NCBI GenBank assembly: GCA_963769655.1
Contig: CAVYMT010000004.1
Location: 856-64,855 of the forward strand
From: an uncultured Rubrobacteraceae bacterium
GTDB taxonomy: Bacteria > Actinomycetota > Rubrobacteria > Rubrobacterales > Rubrobacteraceae
DNA length: 64,000 bases
Direction: 5' to 3'
Below are positions 4,104 to 52,053 of the stretch, piece after piece; the stretch's first letter is position 1, and each line of letters opens with the position of its first letter. Both the position numbers and the translations under genes were made by a program. The notes beneath the pieces were generated by a model, which worked only from the letters and a program-made list of their open reading frames with translations, searched no databases and was not told the origin of the DNA.

Positions 4104-4373
4104 TCAAAGGCCGAATCGCCGGGCCGAGCGCGCTCTCGCCTTGGCCGTCTCTTCCTCCCTGTCCTTGGGCGGTGCGGCGGTTTCGAGTGAGGCAAGCAAC
4201 CTCTCCGAGATCTTCGCCACGTCCTCGACCGCGGAGTAGAAGGCCGCCTCGTTGGTCTTGGACGGCTTGTTGAAGCCGGTCACCTTCCGCACGTACTGCA
4301 GCGAAGCCGCGTTTATCTCCTCGCCGGTCGCCGGCGGCTCGAAGTTGAAGAGCGTCTTGATGTTCCTACACAT
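4104..4373 (-). CDS. DUF2277 family protein
   Basis: The N-terminus MCRNIKTLFNFEPPATGEEINAASLQYVRKVTGFNKPSKTNEAAF is the characteristic DUF2277 signature. Confidence 0.85.
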   Translation of the reverse strand: MCRNIKTLFNFEPPATGEEINAASLQYVRKVTGFNKPSKTNEAAFYSAVEDVAKISERLLASLETAAPPKDREEETAKARARSARRFGL

Positions 4374-5093
4374 GGGGGACGGCCTCTGCGGCGGATCCCC
4401 GACCGCGGGACTCGCTTGCTACCGGGATGCCCTGTGCGCCAAAAGCGTCGGGTACGGGTGCCTGGCTCACGTGCTCTCCTCTCCTCGTCCGTGTCGATGC
4501 CAAAGCGCAATTCAATGTTACTGCGCGCGGCGGCACAACCCCCGCCTATTCTTCGAGAAACGCTGGACGGCTACAAATCTACTGGGCTACGGAGCATAGG
4601 TGGCGCAAGGGTGGAAAGGCGAGGACGGTTCTCATCGGGCGGGTTCGTTGCCGGCGCGCTCGTGTGCTTCGTCTTGGCCGCCGTCGTCAGCTCGCTTATC
4701 GGCAGCTACTTGTTCACGGTCTCGCAGGCCGGCTTCGCGGCCGCCAAGGCCCGCCGGGACGGCGAGGCTGCCGGTGCTGTCGGCGCCCGGCCTCGGTGCA
4801 AGTGGCCACCCGAGCACTCCGGTCGCCGACAGCAGCGTTGTTGGGGGAGCGTGTTTCGTTGCCGTCGCTTCCCACAAGCTATACATCAGACTTCTCGCAG
4901 GAACGTTCTCCGAACTTCGCTCTGAGGGCGTTCACCCAGGAATATTCCCCGACGACTCGGGACACGAGCCTCTGGCGCCCGGGAACCGGGCGGGCTACGC
5001 TGCCTTCGTCGTGCGAAAACGGAAACGAGGAGGCGCAGAGATCATGCTAAGGATGACCTGCCAGGTAAGCGGGTGGGAAAGGAGGAATCTGCT

Positions 5094-8062: not shown

Positions 8063-9010
8063 GAAACTGTCCGAAAAGGGGTCTTGAGGGGGTGGCTCGG
8101 TACCCTACCGGGCATGGAAAGAGCGTACCAAACCGACCTCTCCGACGAAGAGTGGACCTTCGTGGAGCCCCATCTCCCTGCCCCCGAAGCCCCCGGACGG
8201 CCGAGGATCCACGCCTTGCGCGAGGAGATCCTGAACGCCGGCTTCTACATCGTCCGTAGCGGCTGCGCCTGGCGCCTGGTGCCCAAAGAGTATCCGCCCT
8301 GGAAGACCGTCCACCACTACTTCAGGATTTGGCGCTTGGACGGCACCTGGGAGAGGCTGCACGCCGCCCTGCGCGAGCGGGTGCGCGTGCGTACGGGCCG
8401 AGACCCTCAGCCCACGGCCGGCGTGGTCGACAGCCAATCGGTCAAGACGACCGGCGTGGGAGGAAAAGAGCGAGGATACGACGGCGGAAAGAAGGTGAAG
8501 GGGCGCAAACGGCATCTCCTGGTGGACACCGAGGGCCTGGTGCTCAAAGCCAAGGTCCACAGCGCCAAGGTCATGGACCACGAGGGGATCAAGAGGTTGC
8601 TCCACGGCGCCTGGTCGGCGTTCCCCCGCCTGAAGCACCTGTGGCTGGAGGCGGGGTACCGGGGCGAGGACAAGGGCAAGGATTGGGTCGAGAAGACCCT
8701 GGGGTGGGGCGTGGACCTCGTCGAGCGTCCGCGCAAGCCCGCCCCCGAAGAGGTCCTGAGAGAGTGGGCGGAGCAGTGGCACAAGGAGGGCGTGAGCGTG
8801 GACCGGGAGGAGCTGTTGCCGCCGCGAGGCTTCCAAGTGTTGCCGAGGAGATGGGTGGTGGAGCGGACCTTCTCGTGGTTAGACCACAACAGACGGATGA
8901 GCAAGGACTACGAGAGGCTCCCAGAAACCGGCGAGGCGTTCGTCTACGCAGCCATGATCCGTTTGATGGTGAGGCGTCTAACCCGTGCCTGAGAATTCCC
9001 AAACAGTTTC
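8063..9010 (+). mobile_element. IS5-family insertion sequence, copy 1 (intact transposase)
   Basis: Terminal inverted repeats are GAAACTGTCCGAAAA (8063) and CCCAAACAGTTTC (8998..9010). It has a single transposase ORF. Confidence 0.85.
8114..8992 (+). CDS. IS5-family (DDE) transposase
   Basis: MERAYQTDLSDEEW...VDSQSVKTT...LVDTEGLVLKAKVHSAKV...RRWVVERTFSWL...YERL is typical of IS5/IS427-group transposases. ATG at 8114. Confidence 0.9.
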   Translation: MERAYQTDLSDEEWTFVEPHLPAPEAPGRPRIHALREEILNAGFYIVRSGCAWRLVPKEYPPWKTVHHYFRIWRLDGTWERLHAALRERVRVRTGRDPQPTAGVVDSQSVKTTGVGGKERGYDGGKKVKGRKRHLLVDTEGLVLKAKVHSAKVMDHEGIKRLLHGAWSAFPRLKHLWLEAGYRGEDKGKDWVEKTLGWGVDLVERPRKPAPEEVLREWAEQWHKEGVSVDREELLPPRGFQVLPRRWVVERTFSWLDHNRRMSKDYERLPETGEAFVYAAMIRLMVRRLTRA

Positions 9011-9013
9011 GGA

Positions 9014-9954
9014 GAAACTGTTTGGAAACTCTCACCCACGAGCCAACCTCTTGACCATCAGCCGGATCATCGCCGCGTACACGAACGCTTCGGCGCTGGC
9101 GCACAACCTCTCGTAGTCCTCGCTCATCCTCCTGTTCTGGCACAACCACGAGAAGGTCCGCTCCACGACCCACCTGCGGGGTAATGCCACGTACCCTCGC
9201 GGCGGCATCAGCCTTTGCCAGTCGACCTTCTTGTCCTCCTTGGCCCACTCCTCTGCCCAGATCCTCGCCACCTTCTCGGGGGCCGGCTTGGGCGGCTTGC
9301 GCACGACCTCCACGCTCAAGCCCATGCCTTCCTCGGCCCACCGCTTGCCCCGCCCTTGGTAGCCGGCATCCAGCCACAAATGTCTCAGACGCGAGAGCCC
9401 GCTCTGCGCCGACCCCAGCAACAGCCTCAGCCCGTCCTGGTCGGGCACCTTGGCGCTGTGGACCTTGGCCTTGAGCACTAGACCCTCTGTGTCTACCAAA
9501 ATGCGTCGCTTGCGGCCCCTCACCTTCTTGTTGCCGTCGTATCCTCTGTGTTCTCCGCCGACCCCTGTGGTCTTGGAGGACTGGGAGTCGGCGATGCCCG
9601 CGCTCGGGAGCGGGTTCCTACCCCCGTCGACTGCGCAACCGCTCGCGCAGGGCGGCGTTGAGCCGCTCGAAGGTCCCGTCCACGCGCCATCTCCCGAACC
9701 ACCAGTAGACGGTCTCCCAGGGCGGGAAGTCTCGGGGCAACAGCCGCCACGGGCAGCCGCTCTTCAGGACGTAGAAGACGGCGTCGAGGATCTCGCGGGT
9801 GGTGTGGGTCCTCGGTCGTCCTCGCTCGTTGGGAGCCGGGACGTGGGGCTCGAGGCACCTCCATTCGTCGTCGGACAGGTCGGTCGAGTAGCTCCTTTTC
9901 ATGCTCGGGAGCGTACGTCATCGACCTGCCTCGCTCGCTTTTCCAAACAGTTTC
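9014..9954 (-). mobile_element. IS5-family insertion sequence, copy 2 (related to but distinct from copy 1), flanked by GGA direct repeats
   Basis: Inverted repeats are GAAACTGTTTGGAAA (9014..9028) and TTTCCAAACAGTTTC (9940..9954). GGA occurs at 9011..9013 and 9955..9957. Confidence 0.85.
9032..9902 (-). pseudogene. IS5-family transposase split by a 1-nt indel in a G/C run (9621..9625)
   Basis: ORFs 9618..9902 and 9032..9523 together align with the copy-1 transposase. Removing one G from the G5 run gives SRRGRNPLPSAGIADSQSSKTTG, colinear with copy 1 (VRTGRDPQPTAGVVDSQSVKTTG). Confidence 0.85.
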
Positions 9955-9980: not shown

Positions 9981-10248
9981 AACACAAAGCAACTCCTATG
10001 CAACAGCAAGTATGTGCCACCTGGGGGATGTTCCGTCTGTTGCGAGGGTACTACGGTGTCTGATTATACAAGCGGGCAGAGGCTTGGAACCGCGTCTCGG
10101 TGAAGGTGGGTACCCCGTGGGGCGCGGGGAGCCAGTGGTGCAACCGGCTGTGCCGCGCGAACTAGGAGGAGGTCGCGCTTGTGAGGCGCCCTATCTTGCT
10201 GGTTACGCTGGCTTTGGTGATGGCGAAGATGCTGAGAGGAGAGAAGAA

Positions 10249-32895: not shown

Positions 32896-34419
32896 TCAAG
32901 AGTCCCCGCCGCCAGAGGATCCATCGTCTTCAATCCCAGGACGGTCCGTATCGCGCCCTGCCGCGCTCTTGCCTTTGGCCGAGCGTGCGGCGCGCACGAC
33001 GCCGAGGCCACCGACGAAGGCGCAGCCCGCCGCCAGCGGCCATGCCACAGCCCGCGGGAAGCGCAGCCCGATCAGCGACGCCCCCAGCATGGCGCCGCTC
33101 ACCGCCGCGGCCAGCGCCATCTCGTGCGTCTCGATTGGGGCGCCGCTCTTCTGGAGCGCCGCCGTGGACACCCTGGCCAGGGTGGCCCCCGAACCCGAAC
33201 CGCCACCCGCGATGCCGCGGCGGGCCCCGGTGTTGGCGGTGTCCAGCGGACGCTCGGGTCGTGCCTCCCGGCGTCGGCCAGCCTTCACGAGGCGCACCTC
33301 CCCGGCGTTGGCGAGGTCGTCCTCGAACAGGGCCTCCATTTGGGAGGCGAAGCCCTCGTCCTCGACCACGAGGTCTATCTCCCAGTTGGCGAACAGGCTG
33401 CTGAAGTTGAGGTTCGTGGAGCCCACCTTCGACCACCAGCCGTCGGCGACCAGCGTCTTGGCGTGGATCATCGGCCCTGCGTACTCGAAGATCCTCACCC
33501 CCGACTCCAAGAACTGCCGGTAGCCGGTCCGCGAGACAGCCCCGATCCACCGCAGGTTATTCGTGGCCGGGACGAGGACGCGGACGTCGACGCCGTCGCG
33601 GGCCGTGGCCATCAGGGACTGGGTGAGGATGGGCAAAGAGAGGAAGTAAGGGTCCGTGACCCACAGGCGCTTTTCCACCCCGGCGGTGACCAGCTCGATC
33701 AGGCGCAGGGTGCGCATCCTCCTGGGCTCCTGCACCACGATTCGCGCCGCCTGCTCCCCGGCCTTGGAGATGTTCTCGGAGTCAGGACGCTCGTCGTGGG
33801 GCAGCGCCTCGCCAGCCTCGTCCCACACCCCCGCGAAGGCCCGCTCCACCTCGGCGACTACCGGCCCCCGGATGCTCACCGCCGTGTCGCGGTACGGCAA
33901 GCCGGTCTCCGGGGAGACCACCAGCCAGCCGTCCGAGATGCACACCCCGCCCGCGGAGGCGTACTCCCCGTCCACCCCGATCAGCTTGCGGTGGTCCCGG
34001 CTAACGACCCCCAGCGGCGTCCCGACGGTCGGGGGGTTGACCGCCCGAACCTCCACGCCCGCCTCGGCCATCCCCCGCCAGAACGAGCGCGGCACGTAGG
34101 CGGAGCCGAACCAGTCGTGGAGCACGCGCACGGACACGCCCTGGCTGGCCTTCTCCGAAAGCGCCTCTGCAATCCTTTGGCCGATCCCGTCGTTCTGGAA
34201 GATGTAGTTGTCCAGGTGGACCCACCTCTCGGCCCGACCGATGGCGGCGATCCAGTCATCGTAGGTGCGGGGGCCGTTCTTGAGGAGCTCCAGCCGGTTG
34301 CCCTCGCGCAAGGGGGCGTCGCTGGTTCGCGCCAGGACGCGGTCCAGACGGGCGCCGCGTGACGCCGCGTAGTCCGGGATGGGTGTATTCTCGCGCCCGT
34401 TGTCTCGTTCTTCTGACAA
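32896..34419 (-). CDS. phospholipase D / cardiolipin-synthase-like protein with two HKD motifs and C-terminal TM segment(s)
   Basis: HRKLIGVD and HAKTLVAD are both HxKxxxxD motifs. TTG 34419 follows GAGGAGAA. The C-terminal tail is hydrophobic. Confidence 0.9.
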   Translation of the reverse strand: MSEERDNGRENTPIPDYAASRGARLDRVLARTSDAPLREGNRLELLKNGPRTYDDWIAAIGRAERWVHLDNYIFQNDGIGQRIAEALSEKASQGVSVRVLHDWFGSAYVPRSFWRGMAEAGVEVRAVNPPTVGTPLGVVSRDHRKLIGVDGEYASAGGVCISDGWLVVSPETGLPYRDTAVSIRGPVVAEVERAFAGVWDEAGEALPHDERPDSENISKAGEQAARIVVQEPRRMRTLRLIELVTAGVEKRLWVTDPYFLSLPILTQSLMATARDGVDVRVLVPATNNLRWIGAVSRTGYRQFLESGVRIFEYAGPMIHAKTLVADGWWSKVGSTNLNFSSLFANWEIDLVVEDEGFASQMEALFEDDLANAGEVRLVKAGRRREARPERPLDTANTGARRGIAGGGSGSGATLARVSTAALQKSGAPIETHEMALAAAVSGAMLGASLIGLRFPRAVAWPLAAGCAFVGGLGVVRAARSAKGKSAAGRDTDRPGIEDDGSSGGGDS

Positions 34420-34606
34420 GATAGGTTCTCCTCTAGTAGACGCAGCCTCGATTGACGGGTCCTGCCTTCACGCCACGCACGGCGTCTCGATGGATCGTGG
34501 CTCGCCCGTGTTGCGCCCTGGATCACAACGAAGTTCGCGGAGAACTTTTCCCGGCCCCGGATCGGTGGCTCGCCTCCAGGTCCGGCTGCAACCTCGTTGT
34601 TCGCCG

Positions 34607-34682
34607 CCCTTCTCCAAGATTCTCTGAGGGTAGAGCACGCGTCGGTGGCCTGTCCTCACCCACCGGCCCATTTCCCCTAGGG
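34607..34682 (-). promoter_or_regulatory. conserved 76-nt leader element, long-form copy B (between the LuxR stop and the PLD start)
   Basis: The reverse complement aligns without gaps to 48524..48599 with 65/76 identities (hand count). Confidence 0.5.
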
Positions 34683-34704
34683 GGATTTGCGCGCTTCCGG
34701 AGGG

Positions 34705-37015
34705 TCAGACGAGTCCCCGCGCGCGGGCTTCCTCCAGAGCCGCCTCGCGAGAGGAGACCCCGAGTTTGCGGTAGATGGACTTGATGTGGCTCCTGACGGT
34801 CGAGGGAGAGACGAAGAGGACGTGCCCGATCTCCCGCGTGCAGAGCTCGCTGTCGAGGTGTCCGAGCACGTCCAGCTCGCGCTCCGTTAGCTCCCCGTGG
34901 AGCTGTCCGTCCCGCGGCTTGCCGGTCCGAAGCTTGCGCTCCAGGCTCTCGACGAGCCCCGGGAAGGTACCGGCGTCGGGAATGTTCTCCAGAGAGCGCT
35001 GTACCTCGGCGACGATGGCCCTGGCTCCGGTCCTGTCGCCGCGGACGAGGTGGACCCGAGCGAGGGCCACGAGCCCGATGAGGTTGGGCCAGGGGCTCAG
35101 GCCGGGTAACCCGCGGCGCACGGAGATACCTTTCTCCAGCTCTCGCTGGGCATCCTCCAGCTTCCCCTCACCCGCGAGCACGATACCGAGCGCGATGGGC
35201 GCCATGGTGGACTGGGGAGTCCCCCACAGCCCGAGTCTATCCACCAGCGCGTGCGCCTCGTCCGCGAGCGCCCTGGCCTCCTCCAGGTTCCCTTCGTCTA
35301 CGGCGACAAACGACAGGAAAGACAGAACGACCACCCGCAACAGGGGTAGGCCGATCCCCGTCAGCTCGATGGCTTCTTCGAGCGGTTGTCGGGCCGCGGG
35401 CGCGTCCCCGGAAAGGTAAAGACCCGCCCCCAGGGCGAAGCGTGCCAGGACGGCTTGCGGCGAGCCCCTTTCGGTCTCCAGCTTCGCGGCCTGGCGGGCC
35501 AGCTCGATGATATCGTGGACGCCACCCAGGCCGAAGACGGCCCGGATCGTGGTCACGCCCGATTCTACCGAGGCGGTGCCGTCGAGGAGCAACCCGTCAC
35601 CGGGGAAGGCCTCGACCAGCTCCAGCAAGGCCTCGCTCTCCTTCAACCGGCCGTGCAAAGCATAGATCCACGCCTTCACCAGGATGAGCGAAGGATCGCC
35701 GTTGACGAGACCTTCGGGCAGTGCCTCGAGCCACCGCTCTAGGGTCGCCGTCTGGCCGGCGAACGCGTAGCCGAACCAGTGGCGCGCGATCAGCATGCCC
35801 GCGCGCTCGTAGTCTGCCGCCGCTACGGCGTGGCGGGTGGCCCCTTCGAATAACCCTGCTCTTTCGCACCAGAGGCTCGCCCGACCGTGCAGGACGGGCA
35901 CCAATTCGGGCTGGCTGCTCTTGAGCTCGTAGAGCAGCAGGTCGGAGAAGAGGTGGTGGTAGCGGTACCAATCGCCCTCTTCGTCTAGGGGGATCACGAA
36001 CAGGTTGGTGTGGGCGAGCTCGCGCAGCAGCTTGGCCGGAGCCCTCCGTCTCCGCCACGGTGTCGCACAGGGGCCCCGTCATGGTCCGCAGCACCGAGGT
36101 ATGGAGCAGGAATCCTTTCTCGTCCTCCGAAAGGTGCGCCAGAACCTCTTCTCCCAGCAAGTCCACTATGTACCGGCTGCTGCCCCCGTAAGACTCGATA
36201 AAGGCGTGCTTGTCTTTCCTGGTCTGCAGGGAGAGGGCGGCCAGGTAGAGGGCCGCCGGCCATCCTTCTGTCCGCACGAACAGAAGGTTCAGGTCGTCGG
36301 GGCCAACGTCCAGTTGCATTCTGTCGTTGAGCAATATGGCGGCCTCCTCCTCCGAGAAGGCCAGCTGAGCGGTGCGGATCTCGATCATCTCGCCCCTCGC
36401 CCTGAGCCTACCCACCGGCAGCTGCGGTTCGGAGCGGCTCGAGATGACGAGGTGGACGTTCTCCGGGAGGTGCTCGATAAAGAAGGCCATCGCCTCGTGG
36501 CAGTCGCGTTCGGACACGAACTGGTAGTCGTCCAGGATCAGGACCACAGGTTGGAGGAACTCGGCGAGCCCGTTTATGAGCCTGGGGAGCTCCACCTCGG
36601 CGAGCCTTTGCCTGCCGGCGCTCATCCCCATGAGGACGTCGCTCCCGAAGTCTTTTTTCGGCAAGGTCGCGCGTAGCGCCTCTACGATGTGCCGCCAAAG
36701 CCGAATAGGGTCGTTGTCCTGCTCGTCGAGGGAGACCCACGCGAAGGGCACCTCATCCTCTTTCGCCCGGCGCCATTGGGCCAGAAGGGTCGTCTTGCCG
36801 TAGCCGGCCGGGGCACTAAGGAGCGTGAGCCTGCAGCCGGTTGCCTCGTTGAGGCGCTCGAGAAGCCCCGGCCGGACCAGCTGATCGGAGCGTGGCGAAG
36901 GCGCCCTCAGCTTGGGCTTGAGGATTATCCTGGGAGCATCGACGCTCGGGTCGCTGGAGTACTCGATGGCGATGTGTGGACCCCGTTTCCTGCTTGCGAC
37001 AGACCCGGCGGCCAC
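34705..37015 (-). pseudogene. MalT/LuxR-type regulator (P-loop NTPase + TPR-like repeats + LuxR HTH), frameshifted near 36035
   Basis: N-terminal ORF: LLSAPAGYGKTTLL (Walker A) ...ILDDYQ. C-terminal ORF: WYRYHHLF...TPR-like... LTERELDVLGHL...EIGHVLFVSPSTVRSHIKSIYRKLGV. The junction reads GSGQ | KLLRELAHTNLFVIPLDEE. Confidence 0.8.
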
Positions 37016-37301: not shown

Positions 37302-37868
37302 TCAGCCCGGATGCCGAGCCCGCATTCGCAAGGCCAAGACGATCAGCGCTAACCCCACTACCACGGCGAAGGCGCCGATGAACGGCGCCACGGAGGGTAG
37401 GCTGGAGCCGGCCAGCGTTGCGAGGATCGCGCCGAACAGCACCGAGAGCGCGCCGCTTCCGGCGAGCAGCCACGCGCTTTCGACCTCCCTGCGCAGCGTG
37501 ATCGCCGTGAGTATCTTGATGATGCCGGTGAGCAGGGCCCATGCCGCGATGACGTACAGCAACCCGACAGGGTTCAGGCCGGGCCAAAAGAGGGCCAGCA
37601 GGCCGGAGATCACGCCCACCGTCCCCTCGGCGGTCGGCAGCCACCGCTGCGGCCCCGGATCTGGGGACCTGAGCGCTGGTATGGAGGTGATCGATCCGTC
37701 CACCAGCGCGTAGAGGCCAAACAGGATGGACAACAGGGCGAAGACGAGGCCGGGCCAGAAGAGGACCACCAGGCCGAATAGCACGGCCACGAAGCCGCGG
37801 AGCGCCAGCGCCCGCCAGTTGGCGGCGAACGCGCTCAACCTCTGTCGGTATCCTCCCTGGTCGCTCAT
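37302..37868 (-). CDS. HdeD-family (DUF308) acid-resistance membrane protein
   Basis: Repeated DUF308 helices: WRALALRGFVAVLFGLVVLFWPG...GLYALVDG...LLTGIIKILTAITLR. Confidence 0.8.
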   Translation of the reverse strand: MSDQGGYRQRLSAFAANWRALALRGFVAVLFGLVVLFWPGLVFALLSILFGLYALVDGSITSIPALRSPDPGPQRWLPTAEGTVGVISGLLALFWPGLNPVGLLYVIAAWALLTGIIKILTAITLRREVESAWLLAGSGALSVLFGAILATLAGSSLPSVAPFIGAFAVVVGLALIVLALRMRARHPG

Positions 37869-46204: not shown

Positions 46205-46699
46205 TTACTCCGTGTGCGCGAAAGCTTCGCGTAATTGCTTCTCCTGCTCCTCCGGCAGGTTCGTCGAGATGATCTCGAAGTCGTAGGCTTTGAGCTCGTC
46301 TACCACCTTATCTACCGCCGTTGCCCCGCTGGTCAGCGCGAACAGGGCCGATGTGCCCTCCGTCACTTTATCGCGCACTTGCTTGATGAAGTCGTCGCTT
46401 ATGCCCACGTCGGCCAGGGCGCCCGACATGCCGCCCATGCCTGCGCCTATCGCCGCGCCGAGGAAGGGCACGAAGAAGATCAGCCCGAACAGGAAACCCC
46501 AGAAGGCGCCCCAACCCGCGCCCGCGCCGGCCATGCTGTGTAGCTGGTGGGTCGACGGCTTCTTGTTGCCCTGGGGCCAGCTGACGACCGCGGCGTCCTC
46601 CAGGGTGATCAGCTCCCTCTCCTGCATTCCCTGCAGGGCCACCATGACCCGGTCTGCTCCGTAAGGGTCGCTGAACTTCAGTACCGATAGCGTCGCCAC
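46205..46699 (-). CDS. DUF1269 domain membrane protein
   Basis: VATLSVLKFSDPYGADRV...LEDAAVVSW...GAFWGFLFGLIFFVPFLGAAIGAGMGGMSGALADVGISDDFIKQV...SALFAL matches the DUF1269 pattern. GTG 46699 follows AGAGGAGGA. Confidence 0.85.
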   Translation of the reverse strand: MATLSVLKFSDPYGADRVMVALQGMQERELITLEDAAVVSWPQGNKKPSTHQLHSMAGAGAGWGAFWGFLFGLIFFVPFLGAAIGAGMGGMSGALADVGISDDFIKQVRDKVTEGTSALFALTSGATAVDKVVDELKAYDFEIISTNLPEEQEKQLREAFAHTE

Positions 46700-47010
46700 T
46701 TGCGTCCTCCTCTGTGTTGGCGTGTGTGGATCGCGATGCCTGCTTCGAGGAACGATCGGGGGGAGACCTGCCCCCGACCTCACACCCTTGATGGATGCGG
46801 ACCCCGGCCACCAAAGTCGCCCCTGATCCTTCAGAGCTCCAGCCTTTCTCAAGGTGGGACCGGATGGTGATTCTTACGCGGATTGTCGAGCCTCCTGTCG
46901 GGTTGCTCGGTTGCTTGCTCATCCGCTGGGCCTCGAGAACCGAGCCTCTTGACAAGACCGATCAAGCCGACGAAGTGCCATGCTCATCCGAGCCCGGCAC
47001 CGGAAGGTGC

Positions 47011-47466
47011 TCAGGCGCTCTCGAGTTGGTCGGAGTACCTGGCGAGCGCGTAGATGACCATCACACAAAGCGCGATGACCACCACCGCTAGGACCGGCGC
47101 GGCCGGGATGACAAAGAGCCACCTGATGGCGGCCACGATGGCAAAGAGGTAGCCCATCGTCCGACCGAAGCTCCCTCCTCTCAGGAGGTCTATGCCCGCG
47201 TACAGCGCGATTAGCGCGACGATCAAGTCGACGATGCCCCAGAAAACGAAGTTCGCGTACACCAGGTTCCCCGCTTCGGTCACCCACCAGCCGGTGCCCG
47301 TGAACGCAAGAAGCGCGCTCAAGGCCTCCAAGCCAGCAACCACGAACATTAGGACCGCGGCGAAGGTGACCATGCCGGGCCTGTGCGTTACTGCCCTGGC
47401 CTCGACCGGATCCTCCGTACGATCGCCGATTCCTCCCGGGACCGGATCTCTGTGTTGTTCCGCCAT
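47011..47466 (-). CDS. DUF7144-like membrane protein
   Basis: 151 aa, 4 TM helices: FAAVLMFVVAGLEALSAL...FWGIVDLIVALIALYAGIDLLRG...RTMGYLFAIVAAIRWLFVIP... Confidence 0.6.
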   Translation of the reverse strand: MAEQHRDPVPGGIGDRTEDPVEARAVTHRPGMVTFAAVLMFVVAGLEALSALLAFTGTGWWVTEAGNLVYANFVFWGIVDLIVALIALYAGIDLLRGGSFGRTMGYLFAIVAAIRWLFVIPAAPVLAVVVIALCVMVIYALARYSDQLESA

Positions 47467-47502
47467 TTTCGCTCCCCTTTCACTTGCTGCAGCCTCTGGG
47501 GA

Positions 47503-47997
47503 CTACATCGCGTCGATCGTCTTCTCCATCTCCCTGGCGTCCGCCCTGACCTCCTTCTTCAGCTCCTTCTTGGCCCGGGCGGTCGCCTCATCGACCGCCC
47601 GCTCGATCGTCGCCTCGCCGACCACGATCAGGGCCGCCTCGCTCTCGTCGAGCATCTCGCCGATCTCCTTCAGGTCAGAGTTGGACATCCCGCCCCGGAG
47701 GTGTCCGATGAGCGCACCCGCTCCAGCCCCCGCCAGCCCGCTGACCAGGATCGAAGGAGGAAAGATGAGGCCGATCGCCGCACCGGCCGCCAGGCCGGCC
47801 CAGCCTCCGTGCTGGGTCGGCTTCTCGGTCTTGTCGACTACCTTGACCTTGCCGTTTTCGTTCTTGGTGATGACCGCGGCGTCGTAAGTGCCAACGACGT
47901 GCTCGCGGTGCAGCTCCTTGAGCGCCTTGAGGTCGGCCTTCGCGTCGTCAACGCTCTCGTACTCGCCCGCGTAGAGGAACATCGGGTTATCGCTCAC
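47503..47997 (-). CDS. DUF1269-like stress-type protein with a Gly-zipper membrane segment
   Basis: YESVDDAKADLKALKELHREHVVGTYDAAVITKNENGKVKV...GGWAGLAAGAAIGLIF...GLAGAGAGALIGHL...EAALIVVG. GTG start 47997. Confidence 0.75.
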   Translation of the reverse strand: MSDNPMFLYAGEYESVDDAKADLKALKELHREHVVGTYDAAVITKNENGKVKVVDKTEKPTQHGGWAGLAAGAAIGLIFPPSILVSGLAGAGAGALIGHLRGGMSNSDLKEIGEMLDESEAALIVVGEATIERAVDEATARAKKELKKEVRADAREMEKTIDAM

Positions 47998-48123
47998 TCA
48001 AGTCTTCCTTTCGCTGTGTTTTGTCTTGCCCTGACTTCGTGACCTTCTGGTGTTGCCCCGTGCCCCGAATCGATCCAGGCAGCTCTCCTTTTCTGGATTG
48101 CTCGTCTCTTCCCGTATGTCAAT

Positions 48124-48180
48124 CTACCCTCGCTCCAGCAGGGGTTCATCACCCGGCAGAAGGTTTCCCCTAGGGGAATT
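48124..48180 (-). promoter_or_regulatory. short-form copy C of the leader element, with the perfect palindrome TTCCCCTAGGGGAA
   Basis: The reverse complement AATTCCCCTAGGGGAAACCTTCTGCCGGGTGATGAACCCCTGCTGGAGCGAGGGTAG shares the CCTAGGGGAAA-N9-GGGTGA frame with copies A and B. Confidence 0.45.
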
Positions 48181-48445
48181 CTCGCCTGAAGGGCGCTCGT
48201 CCGGCCGAATCGACGGCCCACGTGCCTCGCGGGACCTCGGTACCTACCTTCACGGTCTCTACCCCCAGGCACCTTGGACTTCGACCGCGGTGTGAGGCGT
48301 CTGGTACGAACTCTTGACGCGGCGCTGGGATAGCTCTGCGGCGTGAAAACCGACAGCGCTCGAGACGCGTGGTCGACGGTCGAGGTCGCGATTATCGGAT
48401 CGGGGTGCCGGGAGGAACCAGATCCTGCTCGGTTACGGGACGAAT

Positions 48446-48465
48446 CCCCGACAGTACTCCGTCCC
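48446..48465 (+). promoter_or_regulatory. 20-nt box CCCCGACAGTACTCCGTCCC, shared with the gadB leader
   Basis: 18/20 identical to 50602..50621. Here it sits inside a GGGACG...CGTCCC inverted repeat. Confidence 0.35.
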
Positions 48466-48523
48466 GAGTAGGTGCAAGGGGCCAACGTTGGCACGCACGG
48501 TTTATCCGAAACGATCGCGAATA

Positions 48524-48599
48524 CCCTAGGGGAAATAGGTCGGTGGGTGAGGACAGACCGCCTCACCGTGCTCTACCCTCAGAGAACCTTGGAGAGCGG
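48524..48599 (+). promoter_or_regulatory. conserved 76-nt leader element, long-form copy A
   Basis: CCCTAGGGGAAATAGGTCGGTGGGTGAGGACAGACCGCCTCACCGTGCTCTACCCTCAGAGAACCTTGGAGAGCGG, directly upstream of the small-protein gene. Confidence 0.5.
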
Positions 48600-48645
48600 A
48601 AGGAAACAGCGGAGCAACAAGAGTACAGGGAAATGCTACCGGATA

Positions 48646-48879
48646 GTGGTGCGCGGCGAGCTTAGCGAGCGCTTCGCCGTGGCCTTCGAAGAGATGCGGA
48701 TGGAGGCGGGAGGCGGACAGACCGTCCTCGAAGGGGAGCTCGTCGACCAGACCTACCTCCACGGCGTCCTGGATCGCATAGGCGGATTGGGGCTCGAGTT
48801 GATGAGCGTGGAGTCCTTGCCCGCAGAGGACCAGGACGCCCACGGAATCGAGTCGCCCGTGGATCAGCAATCGGGCTGA
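48646..48879 (+). CDS. small conserved actinobacterial protein (YRIVVRGELSERF... family); start uncertain
   Basis: (Y)RIVVRGELSERFAVAFEEMRMEAGGGQTVLEGELVDQTYLHGVLDRIGGLGLELMSVESL matches a widespread ~80-aa hypothetical family. There is no in-frame ATG; candidate starts are GTG 48646 or TTG 48589. Confidence 0.6.
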   Translation: MVRGELSERFAVAFEEMRMEAGGGQTVLEGELVDQTYLHGVLDRIGGLGLELMSVESLPAEDQDAHGIESPVDQQSG

Positions 48880-48988
48880 TGGAAACTTGCCAGAGCCTCT
48901 GGGGAATAGTGAGCAGCGATCGACGAAGATCAGGCAACGTTAGTAGTCAGGTGCGGGGCAGTGCGGGTCGAGATAGGAGGTATGGAGA

Positions 48989-49282
48989 ATGGGTTGCTTG
49001 CTCGCCATGTTTGCGGGTCTCTTTCCGAGGCTCGCGCTGCTCGTCCTATGGATCGCTCGGCCGGCGATCGTCGGCGCCGCGTTCGGCACGTTCCTCCTGC
49101 CGTTGCTGGGCTTCATCTTCCTTCCCTTCACGACCCTGATCTACGTGCTCGTGTACACGCCCGGCGTCGGGGTGGTCGGGTTGGAGTGGGTCTGGGTCAT
49201 CATCGCCTTGCTCCTGGACGTCGGGCACTGGGGGGCCGGCTACACCCAGCGGGACCAGTTCCCCGGGACGCGCGGCGCGTGA
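48989..49282 (+). CDS. hypothetical small membrane protein
   Basis: GGAGG RBS; 97 aa with 3 hydrophobic helices. Confidence 0.55.
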   Translation: MGCLLAMFAGLFPRLALLVLWIARPAIVGAAFGTFLLPLLGFIFLPFTTLIYVLVYTPGVGVVGLEWVWVIIALLLDVGHWGAGYTQRDQFPGTRGA

Positions 49283-49328
49283 ACGCCGGGCGCACGGCAC
49301 CAATGTGTCTGTAGAAGAGTCTTCCGGA

Positions 49329-49354
49329 GCGAGACCCCTTCTGTCGGGTCTCGC
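49329..49354 (+). terminator. stem-loop downstream of 48989..49282
   Basis: GCGAGACCC-cttctgtc-GGGTCTCGC is a perfect 9-bp stem, but no U-tract follows. Confidence 0.4.
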
Positions 49355-49514
49355 AGGACTCTGCGGCGGAGGCGAGAAGCAAGACCCGATCGCGCACTTC
49401 AGAGTGGGCGCAGGATAGGTGATACGGCGCCTGAGGAAGCGGGACGAATGGGGCCGCGCGGGACACCGAACCCGCGATTGAGGCTGACGGCGAACGAAGG
49501 TACGGAGGTGAACG

Positions 49515-50039
49515 ATGACGGAGAAGTTAGGACCGGTTCAGCTGCTGGCGATCGGCTTCGGCCCGGAGGCCGGTTTCGAGGGCAAGATCATGGACGAGCT
49601 CTCCAGGCTCGAGCGGCACGAGACGATCCGGATCCTGGACCTGCTGTTCGTGCACAAGGACGCCGAGACGGGCGATCTACTCGCCCTCGACTACCAGGGC
49701 GAAGAGCTCGGCGCCATCGTCGGCGCTTTGCTTGGCTTCGAGTTCGAGGGCGATGGGTCGGCCGAAACGCCGGAGGTAGAAGGCCACGCCTTCGGGCTCT
49801 CACAGCGGGAGATCGAGGACATGGCGGCCTCGCTCGAACCCGGCAGCTCGGCCGGATTCCTGCTCGTAGAGCACGTCTGGGCGCGAGAACTCAAGCGCGC
49901 GATCCGCGAGACGGGCGGCTACCCATTGGGAGAAGGTTTCCTCACGCCCGAGACCATCGCCGCCGTCGCAGCCGAGCTAGTCGCCATGGCCGAGGCCATC
50001 GAGGAGCTCGAGATCGAAGAAGCGAGCGCCGGAGCCTAG
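49515..50039 (+). CDS. DUF6325/DUF1269-like soluble protein
   Basis: LGPVQLLAIGFGPEAGFEGKIMDELSRLERHETIRILDLLFVHKDAETGD...LEPGSSAGFLLVEHVWARELKRAIRETGG. GGAGGTG RBS. Confidence 0.65.
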   Translation: MTEKLGPVQLLAIGFGPEAGFEGKIMDELSRLERHETIRILDLLFVHKDAETGDLLALDYQGEELGAIVGALLGFEFEGDGSAETPEVEGHAFGLSQREIEDMAASLEPGSSAGFLLVEHVWARELKRAIRETGGYPLGEGFLTPETIAAVAAELVAMAEAIEELEIEEASAGA

Positions 50040-50121
50040 GGGAGACCTGGAAGGACTCGAATCGGCGGAGCGAAAGGAGAACGGGACGTGGGACTCATCG
50101 CAGCAGCGGGCCGGAGGCAGG

Positions 50122-50367
50122 ATGCAGGCGCGGCAGACCTACCGAACGATGTCGCGGATGCAGCGACGCCGCTCGTACATCGAGGACAAGGTCGGCGCGC
50201 GTCAGGACTTCAGCAGCCCGGAGCAGGCACAGGCCCCGGAGGCCGCCCCGGCCGCTGCCGAGCCGGAGTACATGGGAGAGCTGGAACGGCTCGCCCAGCT
50301 TCGGGACCAGGGCATCCTCAGCGACGAGGAGTTCGAGGCCAAGAAGAAGCAGATACTGGGGATCTGA
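50122..50367 (+). CDS. SHOCT-domain protein
   Basis: The C-terminal EYMGELERLAQLRDQGILSDEEFEAKKKQILGI is a SHOCT motif. A GTG at 50088 with a better RBS lies in another frame (see findings). Confidence 0.7.
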   Translation: MQARQTYRTMSRMQRRRSYIEDKVGARQDFSSPEQAQAPEAAPAAAEPEYMGELERLAQLRDQGILSDEEFEAKKKQILGI

Positions 50368-50601
50368 AGACCTGTAATGGTGCCATGTCCTGCGCGAACG
50401 CCCTGGCCGGCGATGTGGATCTCGTCGACACTGCCTAGCCGGGGCAATCGGGTGTCGGGATCCGGGCTGGGGGCTTCTCGCGTCCAGAACCTGCCCATCG
50501 AGCTCGGTACGGTGCGCGGAGCGCCGACGCTGCAAGAGTGTGCCCCAGAAAGCCGACATGGTTAGCGGATTCGCGTCCCTGGCGCGATTCTCTCGAGTTG
50601 A

Positions 50602-50621
50602 CCCCAACAGTACTGCGTCCC
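50602..50621 (+). promoter_or_regulatory. 20-nt box CCCCAACAGTACTGCGTCCC in the gadB leader
   Basis: 18/20 identical to 48446..48465. GCGTCCCTG occurs twice in this leader (50573 and 50615). Confidence 0.35.
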
Positions 50622-50655
50622 TGATCGCGCCCGGAGGCAGGAAAGGAGAACGGCG

Positions 50656-52053
50656 ATGACGCTGCACACAAGGATCAGCGGCGAGGGGCCCGAGGAACAA
50701 AACCTCTCGGTCAATCCCCTCTTGGGCATCTACGGCGGGAGCACTGCCGTCCCCAAGCACCGCATTCCGGACGGTCCGATGCCGCCCGAGACGGCCTACG
50801 AGGTCATCCACGACGAGCTCATGCTCGACGGCAACGCCCGCCTGAACCTGGCCACCTTCGTGACGACGTGGATGGAGCCCCAGGCCGAGAGGCTGATGGC
50901 CGAGTGCTCCGACAAGAACATGATCGACAAGGACGAGTACCCGCAGACCGCCGAGCTGGAGATGCGCTGCGTGAACATGCTGAGCCGCCTGTGGAACTCG
51001 CCCGACACCGATTCGGCGACGGGCTGCTCGACCACCGGCTCCAGCGAGGCCGCCATGCTGGGAGGGATGGCCCTCAAGCGTCGTTGGCAGCACAGGAGGC
51101 GTGAGGCCGGAGAGAGCACCGACCGGCCGAACATGGTGATGGGCATAAACGTGCAGGTCTGCTGGGAGAAGTTCTGCAACTACTTCGAGGTCGAGCCCCG
51201 CTACGTGCCCATGGAAGGGAACCGCTTCCACCTCAACGGCGAGGAGGCGGCGAAACACTGCGACGAGAACACCATCGGCGTCGTGGCGATCCTCGGCTCG
51301 ACCTTCGACGGTTCTTACGAGCCGGTGCAGGAGATCTCCGATGCCCTCGACGACCTGCAGCAGCGCACCGGCCTCGACGTCCCGGTCCACGTGGACGGGG
51401 CGTCGGGGGCCATGGTCGCGCCCTTCCTGGACCCGGACCTGGTGTGGGATTTCCGCCTGCCGCGCGTGGCGTCGATCAACACCTCGGGCCACAAGTACGG
51501 CCGGGTGTACCCGGGCGTCGGCTGGGCGATCTGGCGCGACCCTGAGGCCCTGCCCGAGGACCTCGTCTTCCGGGTGAACTACCTCGGGGGGGACATGCCG
51601 ACGTTCGCGCTGAACTTCTCGCGCCCGGGCTCGCAGGTCGTGGCGCAATACTACAACTTCCTCAGGTTGGGCTTCGAGGGCTACCGGCGCGTTCAGCAGG
51701 AGTGCCGGGACATCGCGACCTTGGGATCTGCCGCCATCGCGGAGCTCGGCCCCTTCGAGCTCATTACCGACGGCTCCGAGCTCCCTGTCTTCGCCTTCAA
51801 GGTTCGTGACGAGGTGGACAATTTCTCGGCCTACGACGTCTCCAGCGGTATGCGCGAGCGCGGCTGGCAGGTTCCCGCGTACTCGTTCCCCAAGAATCGG
51901 GAAGACCTGGTCGCGCTGAGGGTGGTGGTCAGGAACGGCTACAACAGGGATCCGGCCGACATTTTCCTGGACGACCTGAAGCGGTTGGTGGCGCGCCTGG
52001 AGAAGCAGCCGGCCCCGGCGCACGACGAATCCGAGGCGGGCTTCTCCCACTGA
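50656..52053 (+). CDS. gadB: glutamate decarboxylase (PLP-dependent)
   Basis: 465 aa with NTSGHKYGRVYPGVGW (PLP lysine) and N-terminal IPDGPMPPETAYEVIHDELMLDGNARLNLATFVTTWMEP; colinear with bacterial GadA/GadB. Confidence 0.92.
   Translation: MTLHTRISGEGPEEQNLSVNPLLGIYGGSTAVPKHRIPDGPMPPETAYEVIHDELMLDGNARLNLATFVTTWMEPQAERLMAECSDKNMIDKDEYPQTAELEMRCVNMLSRLWNSPDTDSATGCSTTGSSEAAMLGGMALKRRWQHRRREAGESTDRPNMVMGINVQVCWEKFCNYFEVEPRYVPMEGNRFHLNGEEAAKHCDENTIGVVAILGSTFDGSYEPVQEISDALDDLQQRTGLDVPVHVDGASGAMVAPFLDPDLVWDFRLPRVASINTSGHKYGRVYPGVGWAIWRDPEALPEDLVFRVNYLGGDMPTFALNFSRPGSQVVAQYYNFLRLGFEGYRRVQQECRDIATLGSAAIAELGPFELITDGSELPVFAFKVRDEVDNFSAYDVSSGMRERGWQVPAYSFPKNREDLVALRVVVRNGYNRDPADIFLDDLKRLVARLEKQPAPAHDESEAGFSH

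Follow-up and report, generated by a model that had tools for sequence, protein, structure and literature searches.

Why should two genes of unrelated families be preceded by nearly the same 76 nucleotides (nt)? The question is raised by a contig of an uncultured Rubrobacteraceae bacterium (NCBI GenBank assembly GCA_963769655.1, contig CAVYMT010000004.1, positions 856 to 64,855 of the forward strand), of which the whole stretch of 64,000 nt, hereafter the window, was analyzed. An earlier note on this DNA had described the repeated sequence as a leader element, read mainly as a structured RNA, and had named an upstream peptide and an operator or promoter module as alternative readings. The comparative data presented here favor the last of these. 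The element is probably a DNA module that joins a promoter to protein-binding sites and that belongs to a lineage-specific regulon of the Rubrobacteraceae, probably under the control of a MalT-family regulator of the STAND type. A survey of the literature on Rubrobacter promoters and transcription start sites (TSSs), and on the motif strings themselves, returned no description of the module within the literature searched. The mechanism itself would be a conventional one.

Copies of the Element in the Window

The resemblance between the two sequences is real and far beyond chance. A gapless alignment of positions 48524-48599 of the forward strand (copy A) with the reverse complement of positions 34607-34682 (copy B) gives 65 identities in 76 positions, exactly the value first reported, and a repeat search widened the match to 88 nt at 82% identity (48524-48611 versus 34595-34682). 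The claim that the flanks are unrelated also held, with blocks of 20 nt on either side alike at just 4-10 of 20 positions. The 19-mer GTGCTCTACCCTCAGAGAA and the 22-mer TACCCTCAGAGAAYCTTGGAGA have copies A and B as their sole occurrences and were never found twice in 100 shuffles. Each copy lies, as had been noted, in the orientation of the gene downstream of it. Copy A is upstream of the open reading frame (ORF) of a small conserved protein (48589-48879, +), orthologs of which occur 3' of other long copies of the element, and copy B is upstream of its proposed target, a gene of the phospholipase D (PLD) family (32896-34419, -; Pfam PLDc_2, E = 3.3e-30). A third copy, short and partial, was overlooked in the earlier note. 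This copy C, recovered as a member of the repeat family and by motif search, lies at 48146-48178 (-) upstream of a DUF1269 gene (47997-47503) and has no co-directional gene immediately 5' of it. These three are the only copies of the module in the window.

Conserved Anatomy of the Element

A total of 185,579 species-representative genomes were scanned with the pattern CCTAGGGGAAA-N8-10-GGGTGA, which matched 69 stretches. Thirty of these stretches, with 40 copies, belong to Rubrobacter, to Rubrobacteraceae or to unclassified Actinomycetota metagenome-assembled genomes (MAGs), and there are often several copies per MAG. The other matches are scattered singles as chance predicts, with the exception of one locus from Cellulomonas soli (L038; homologous motif-bearing loci are labeled L followed by a number). 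A stricter pattern matched at least 120 stretches in soil metagenomes. In all, the genomes and the metagenome matches listed provide about 165 copies, almost entirely from Rubrobacteraceae, and the 127 unique copies among them are the base of the consensus and of the position counts given below.

The copies have just four blocks in common, and the spacing of these blocks is fixed: a palindrome, (A)ATCCCCTAGGGGAAAY; 8 variable bases followed by the box TGGGTGA(T/A/G)GA; 19-20 variable bases; and a TAnnnT hexamer with a purine behind it. The consensus of the 127 unique copies is AaATCCCCTAGGGGAAAy-N8-TGGGTGAwGA-N19/20-TAnnnT-N4-gA. Within it, the palindrome has a 12-bp core, TCCCCTAGGGGA, followed by a directional AAAY, and is separated from the box by exactly 8 variable bp. 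Moreover, several positions that were not forced by the search pattern are nearly invariant. These include AAATCC on the left of the palindrome (with T, C and C of the left half present in 126, 126 and 125 of the 127 copies), the T before GGGTGA (126 of 127), and the G and A past the variable base of the box (127 and 124 of 127, respectively).

The hexamer was likewise not part of the pattern used to scan the genomes, yet TAnnnT is found 22-23 nt past GGGTGA in 41 of 43 genome copies and in 108 of 115 metagenome copies among the matches listed, versus 0 of 39 chance matches in other taxa at the same offset. Six nt past the hexamer, A is present in 99 and a purine in 117 of the 127 copies. The stretch between box and hexamer, by contrast with its constant length of 19-20 nt, varies in sequence, as is expected of a promoter spacer; it is this stretch that holds the "divergent segment" of the earlier note together with the 3' halves of the stems proposed there. 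Two features of a promoter are thus present, namely a -10-like TAnnnT hexamer at a fixed distance with a purine at the position of the start, and intergenic copies aimed at downstream genes of unrelated families. The box is single in most copies. In four loci (L039, L042, L135 and L142), one palindrome is common to two divergent arms with mirror-image boxes, TCATCACCCA-N8-TTTCCCCTAGGGGAAA-N8-TGGGTGATGA; the mirror-image box, 42 bp away, occurs in these bidirectional copies only.

If the conserved purine is taken as +1, the palindrome would be centered near -57, the box would span roughly -41 to -32 and overlap the -35 region, and the hexamer would occupy -11 to -6. Copy A (+) would then be composed of the palindromic site ATACCCTAGGGGAAAT at 48521-48536, with the core TCCCCTAGGGGA; the box TGGGTGAGGA at 48544-48553, N8 away; a 20-nt spacer of low information content at 48554-48573; the -10-like hexamer TACCCT at 48574-48579; and a putative transcription start at A 48585. 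In copy B (-), the palindromic site AATCCCCCTAGGGGAAAT occupies 34670-34686, a match to the same box TGGGTGAGGA occupies 34653-34662, and the hexamer, again TACCCT, is at 34627-34632, with A 34621 as the putative start. Copy C (-), with the sequence TTCCCCTAGGGGAAAC-N8-GGGTGATGA, has its hexamer TAGATT at 48121-48126 and its putative start at A 48115.

Candidate Regulator

A candidate for the protein that would bind these sites is encoded beside copy B. The gene of a MalT-family LAL/STAND regulator (34705-37015, -; Pfam AAA_16/AAA_22, TPR_MalT and a GerE helix-turn-helix, HTH) ends with a stop codon at 34707-34705, 18 nt before the palindromic site of copy B begins. Among the matches listed, homologs of this regulator are encoded in 81 of 151 motif-bearing loci, and 84 of 165 copies, copy B included, flank such a gene. 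Of these copies, 49 follow closely on the regulator stop codon on the same strand (at 60 nt or less in 48 cases), and the other 35 lie within 700 nt of the regulator start in divergent orientation. For a further 6 copies the regulator gene is elsewhere in the locus, and 75 copies are in loci, often short, that have no regulator gene. The usual order is a short-form copy that points to DUF1269, DUF7144 and a second DUF1269 gene (DUF1269b) on one side, and on the other side the regulator gene, a long-form copy, the small-protein gene and a membrane-protein gene, which all point the opposite way.

The intact ortholog of the regulator in L010 aligns to the E. coli MalT structure 8bob over residues 19-432 (E = 1.6e-48) and to the NCBIfam MalT model with E = 1e-100. 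Its score of 338 bits against that model is below the equivalog cut-off of 537, which indicates a member of the MalT family rather than MalT itself. A MalT-family regulator with a nucleotide-binding oligomerization domain (NOD), a tetratricopeptide repeat (TPR) sensor and a GerE HTH is thus encoded together with the putative regulon. An independent case is provided by C. soli (L038), where the site TCCCCTAGGGGAAAT-N8-GGGTGATG is found near homologs of the small protein, of the regulator and of DUF1269. There, the small-protein homolog (YRVVLRGELGDAF...; about 4110-4420, +) has 31% identity and the regulator homolog 32-38% identity.

The regulator gene of the window is split in two frames between 36038 and 36075 (-), next to the run GGGGCCCC, as located by tblastn. 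Its N-terminal 310 and C-terminal 457 amino acids align to the L010 ortholog in different frames, and the public protein P0028 is a separate 430-amino-acid C-terminal ORF. This frame change may mark a pseudogene or may be a homopolymer assembly error. The 350 bp that separate copy C from copy A were also examined for remnants of a regulator gene, and none were found. It should be noted that the PLD-linked regulator paralog of the closest relative, L190, has an AT-rich upstream region (4600-4680, +) with no divergent short-form copy, unlike the usual arrangement.

Downstream Genes

On the strand to which each copy points there are ORFs from at least 12 gene families. These include the small protein together with a small membrane protein, DUF1269, DUF7144 and the second DUF1269, DUF308/HdeD-like and DUF389 proteins, AI-2E transporters, VTT/DedA, SfLAP and PLD proteins, a sulfatase, and a class-II glutamine amidotransferase (GATase). 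Most of the products are integral membrane proteins, which gives the set the look of an envelope or stress regulon. Copy C has three proposed targets in line, all on the minus strand and assigned by Pfam: DUF1269 (47997-47503), DUF7144 (47466-47011) and DUF1269 (46852-46205).

The product of the gene downstream of copy A matched no family in Pfam or NCBIfam. TTG 48589 opens the reading L/M-E-S-G-R-K-Q, in frame with the protein core YRIVVRGEL..., whereas the public annotation starts at GTG 48649. An AlphaFold model (predicted local distance difference test score, pLDDT, 74) has a beta-alpha-beta-beta-alpha-beta core from residue 15 and a disordered stretch over residues 1-11, which suggests a ferredoxin/ACT-like fold. 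A fold search with this model returned generic ferredoxin/ACT/HMA-like matches, none of them at E <= 0.001. The small protein accompanies the MalT-like regulator both in Rubrobacteraceae and in C. soli, a joint occurrence that makes it a possible partner of that regulator.

Two further observations concern genes of these kinds. Copies A and C are within a stress-type gene island (46205-52053) that has three DUF1269-matching proteins, one of them below the Pfam cut-off, DUF7144, a SHOCT-domain protein (50122-50367) and a glutamate decarboxylase-like ORF (50656-52053); the motif is present before the first gene on each side only. In addition, the ORF at 37302-37868 (-) resembles, by eye, the DUF308/HdeD-like protein of L011 and has no motif copy before it in the window; among the matches listed, that family is found with the motif in L011 and in five metagenome loci.

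Proposed Mechanism

The mode of action proposed here is that of E. coli MalT at MalT boxes and of the MalT-like regulator of Actinoplanes. A MalT-family STAND/LAL regulator would multimerize on a signal and bind the palindrome, the box over the -35 region, or both of them cooperatively; once bound, it would recruit RNA polymerase to a promoter that has no good -35 hexamer. A dimeric regulator is proposed to bind the palindrome, and the box could be a MalT-box-like site or else a -35 element of unusual sequence. The palindrome may take a GerE dimer in another mode or may take a second protein. The best -35-like hexamers, AGGACA and ATGAAC, have 3-4 of 6 matches at an 18-nt spacer, a weakness that fits a promoter in need of an activator. 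What the data show directly are the conserved blocks with their spacing and orientation, the gene neighborhood, and the lack of RNA covariation; the position of the start, the identity of the binding protein, and activation rather than repression are inferred.

Several points weigh against this model. All positions relative to +1 depend on the reading of TAnnnT as a -10 hexamer, and a scan of the three window copies for E. coli-type sigma-70 promoters (TTGACA-N16-18-TATAAT, at least 9 of 12 matches) gave no site, a lack of positive support; such a miss is usual in high-GC actinobacteria and hence uninformative. The link to the regulator is drawn from gene neighborhood, and many of the cases are orthologous synteny, so that they amount to few independent events. 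The palindrome is unlike a MalT box, and a second protein may bind it. Within the window, the regulator gene beside copy B is frameshifted and the interval from copy C to copy A contains no regulator gene. The copy in Cellulomonas has no TAnnnT at the expected offset. Finally, the long-form copies lie at most 60 nt behind the regulator stop codon with no terminator between, and an RNA that reads through from the regulator gene would include the motif.

Alternative Explanations

Among the alternatives, the one that retains most weight, as a possibility that we nevertheless consider doubtful, is that what matters functionally in the common sequence is an upstream or leader peptide translated from it. 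Copies A and B have about 30 bases more in common than other copies do (76-88 nt versus about 56 nt). In long-form copies, the sequence past the -10 hexamer reads C(A/G)GAGAAC...(A/T)TGGAG(A)nCGGyGGnAAACAG, and its 3' end opens a mini-ORF, M/L-E-x-G-G-(K/R/E), in about 15 of the 20 compared. Synonymous changes are seen at both of its Gly codons (GGC/GGT and GGT/GGA/GGC), and the mini-ORF is kept in at least four settings, namely before the small protein, before PLD, before a sulfatase, and before an unassigned ORF in L068. It is in frame with the small protein in copy A, L020, L022, L026, L042, L068 and L069, whereas a stop codon closes it ahead of the main start in L001, L027 and L067 and ahead of the sulfatase gene in L063. 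On the other hand, L002 and L024 have it out of frame and L010 and L039 have it out of frame or not at all, short-form copies are wholly without it (20 of 117), and it would explain at most 11 of the 76 nt. The frame that the earlier note had read as a peptide through the whole element does not stand, as it is interrupted by TGA in L001, L063 and L069 and shifted by indels in L028 and L039; what survives of that suggestion, as a possibility, is the mini-ORF, which the last 11 nt do open and which is conserved among long-form copies.

In the explanation favored here, the extra length of the A/B match is accounted for by descent. In copy B, a 49-codon ORF from TTG (34468-34617, -; L-E-K-G-G-E-Q-R...) resembles copy A over its first 8 or so codons only, and it is interpreted as the decayed remnant of a small-protein paralog in the PLD leader. 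Two relatives indicate how this state came about. L010 has the order regulator, motif, intact small-protein paralog and truncated PLD-homologous ORF, and L190, the regulator of which is 74% identical to that of the window, has the order regulator, motif, remnant ORF (LENGRKDAGNGRAYRAVIF..., with ...GRAYRAVIF...) and PLD. Copies A and B are thus paralogs of a unit made of the promoter and the 5' end of the small-protein gene, the gene body having decayed at B. As long-form paralogs that include the putative first transcript bases and the mini-ORF, they are alike over 76-88 nt, and the loss of the small-protein body would leave the module at copy B to drive the PLD gene. It should be noted that the public annotation of small-protein starts is inconsistent. 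Several calls (P0006, P0010, P0015, P0016 and P0023) have their start 5' of the promoter, so that the GGGTGAGGACAG box is translated in them as "...GEDRP...", in the frame that the earlier note took for a peptide; other public starts are MESGGKQ or MGT..YRIVV.

It is also conceivable, but unlikely, that the promoter is as described here while the palindrome is the operator of a repressor or of another regulator, the MalT-like regulator being merely a co-regulated neighbor. The palindrome does lack similarity to MalT boxes, the 75 of 165 copies without a regulator gene in their loci could be read in this way, and in the window itself no regulator gene lies between A and C and the one beside B is frameshifted. 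Against this, a site near -57 is ill-placed for repression and typical for activation; centers near -57 are typical of the sites of class I activators. Moreover, no other regulator gene is conserved in the loci, and the regulator, the palindrome, the small protein and DUF1269 are found together as far away as Cellulomonas.

In our judgment there is only a slim chance that the element is a promoter of an alternative sigma factor of the general-stress type (sigma-B/sigma-F-like), in which the -10 element would be GGGTGA, the -35 element would fall in the palindrome, and no separate activator would be needed. In actinobacteria, the -10 element of SigF and SigB is GGGTA(T/C), and a GTTT-like -35 element is found 12-17 nt upstream of it. 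GGGTGA resembles this -10 element, TAGGGG is placed 13 nt upstream of it, and the target genes look like a stress regulon. The match of GGGTGA is only partial, however, and where the -35 element should be, 12-17 nt upstream, the copies have AGGGGAAA and nothing GTTT-like. A promoter of this kind would also leave unexplained the TAnnnT that about 94% of copies have at a set distance of 22-23 nt downstream, along with the conserved purine, and the left half of the palindrome, which is kept even in unidirectional copies, fits a dimeric protein better. Two further sigma factor classes were compared by eye and rejected: for sigma-54 (GG-N10-GC), the GC is out of register and long forms have none, and an extracytoplasmic function (ECF) type promoter (GGAAY as -35, with a CGT/GTT-type -10 16-17 nt downstream) fits no copy. 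The palindrome was also considered as a terminator of the regulator gene and rejected, as it has a very short stem and no U-tract; a terminator scan gave no sites, although such a scan is uninformative for high-GC DNA.

The reading preferred in the earlier note, a riboswitch-like leader in which a compensatory stem (GGUC/GACC in copy A, GGCC/GGCC in copy B) is joined to an H-type pseudoknot, is highly improbable and has been largely refuted, having failed all tests run. Apart from the A/B stem change itself, it can draw on the long-form copies that lie just 3' of a co-directional gene with no terminator detected, where read-through transcription is possible. When the three proposed helices were placed on the alignment of 20 homologs, however, 62.7% of cells were paired, versus 60.8% in column shuffles. 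The compensating stem (helix 1) pairs in just 52.5% of cells, and two central pairs of the pseudoknot fail in most of the 20 sequences (28-41 in 19 and 29-40 in 18). RNAalifold found no consensus fold (-5.1 kcal/mol) and no covarying pair in the same homologs, and the minimum free energy, compared with 200 dinucleotide shuffles, indicated no extra stability (z = 0.04 for A and 0.36 for B). A search of Rfam 15 over the element gave no match at the gathering threshold, and at E <= 10 both copies had chance-level matches only, e.g., mir-8286 at 19.5 bits versus a gathering score of 70. Furthermore, the conserved blocks are found in short-form copies as well, among them copy C, which has no co-directional gene immediately upstream, and 35 that are divergent from the regulator gene. 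One palindrome that serves two divergent arms is feasible for a DNA site but not for an RNA, and the conserved -10-like hexamer inside the element would place most of the element upstream of the start.

Lastly, a mobile or repetitive element akin to repetitive extragenic palindromic sequences (REP) or miniature inverted-repeat transposable elements (MITE) would account for a multi-copy sequence that contains a palindrome, but it is refuted by orientation and context and retains next to no probability, as the anatomy is fixed and ends in a -10-like hexamer, each copy is assigned to an ORF on the strand to which it points, mostly of few gene families, no copy was seen inside a recognized gene, there are three copies in 64 kb, and no terminal repeats or target duplications were seen.

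Other Features of the Window

Two features elsewhere in the window are recorded here in their own right. The first, at 10069-10159 (+), is a full-length match to the Rfam c-di-GMP-II-GAG riboswitch aptamer (RF03169; 41.7 bits versus a gathering score of 40, E = 1e-4). The second is a set of nested inverted repeats at 8225-9794 that form an imperfect palindrome of about 1.6 kb, with arms at 8729-9010/9014-9295 (282 nt, 74%), 8403-8601/9417-9615 and 8225-8386/9633-9794.

Significance

The analysis removes a false candidate for a new class of riboswitch and yields, in its place, a testable regulon model for a poorly studied, stress-tolerant lineage of actinobacteria. The model supplies a precise consensus, a candidate regulator, and a set of target families mostly without known function (DUF1269, DUF7144, DUF308, DUF389, PLD and ACT-like). 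Little is understood of STAND/LAL regulators other than those of the maltose system and of antibiotic gene clusters, and a clean site together with a regulon could therefore help to assign functions to such domains. A wider proposal can be put forward only tentatively, and it is perhaps more apt to fail than to hold: that from Rubrobacteria to Cellulomonas there is an undescribed envelope or membrane stress regulon under a MalT-type STAND regulator, with a tripartite promoter (the palindrome near -57, the MalT-box-like element over the -35 region and the -10 hexamer) and with a core operon that would open with a near-leaderless mini-ORF and the ACT-like protein, a constant companion of the regulator. 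If so, the small ACT-like protein could be the ligand-sensing or inhibitory partner of the regulator, a role comparable to that of MalY, MalK and Aes, which are partners of MalT.

Comparison With Known Systems

The long form of the module recalls mycobacterial mRNAs that are leaderless or have short leaders with small upstream ORFs. The putative start is 4 nt before the TTG or ATG that opens the short conserved ORF, which lacks a Shine-Dalgarno sequence; in some copies this mini-ORF is continuous with the main gene and in others it stands apart. In contrast to those mRNAs, the distance from hexamer to start codon is 9-17 nt, and 40-43 nt in L001 and L069, and most copies would therefore not be strictly leaderless.

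Dimers of GerE-type HTH proteins bind C-rich inverted repeats, e.g., the heptamers TACYYMT of NarL in 7-2-7 inverted pairs and the 20-bp palindrome of DosR. The ...CCCCT/AGGGG... of the module resembles the 7-2-7 site of NarL, a likeness to be taken as a lead only. Its half-sites, however, have no spacer between them, and the candidate regulator has a STAND ATPase domain rather than a receiver domain.

Other parallels are found in the MalT promoters of E. coli and Klebsiella. As in those systems, an asymmetric box would lie over the -35 region, a further site is present about 20 bp upstream, and there is no good -35 hexamer; the regulator encoded beside about half of the copies is a MalT homolog with the same NOD-arm-TPR-GerE architecture. 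The E. coli MalT box is GGGGA(T/G)GAGG, with the core GGA(T/G)GA (cited in PMC7567727). The box of the module, GGGTGA(T/A/G)GA, differs from it, although its TGA(T/A/G)GA, preceded by GGG, matches five of the six positions of the core, has its variable base in the same place, and ends about 31-32 nt before the putative start. Two other differences are that the upstream site is here a perfect palindrome, TCCCCTAGGGGA, in place of direct-repeat MalT boxes, and that the putative targets are membrane and stress genes rather than maltodextrin genes.

The module also invites comparison with the system of Actinoplanes sp. SE50/110, in which 40 of the 51 genes that make up a co-regulated genomic region are activated by a MalT-like regulator, and in which the motif TCATCC-5nt-GGATGA lies over the -35 region with its 3' end 34.4 +/- 1 nt from mapped TSSs (PMC7567727). 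The Actinoplanes study mapped the TSSs and put the regulator to a genetic test, whereas the start and the regulator of the module are putative. The half-sites of the Actinoplanes motif are 5 bp apart, while the module has mostly a single box and a separate palindrome. The GGATGA half overlaps the -35 region in Actinoplanes, and the box of the module ends about 31-32 nt from the putative start. In both cases an actinobacterium encodes a MalT-like regulator of the LuxR family within or beside a regulon, or putative regulon, whose targets are unrelated to maltose.

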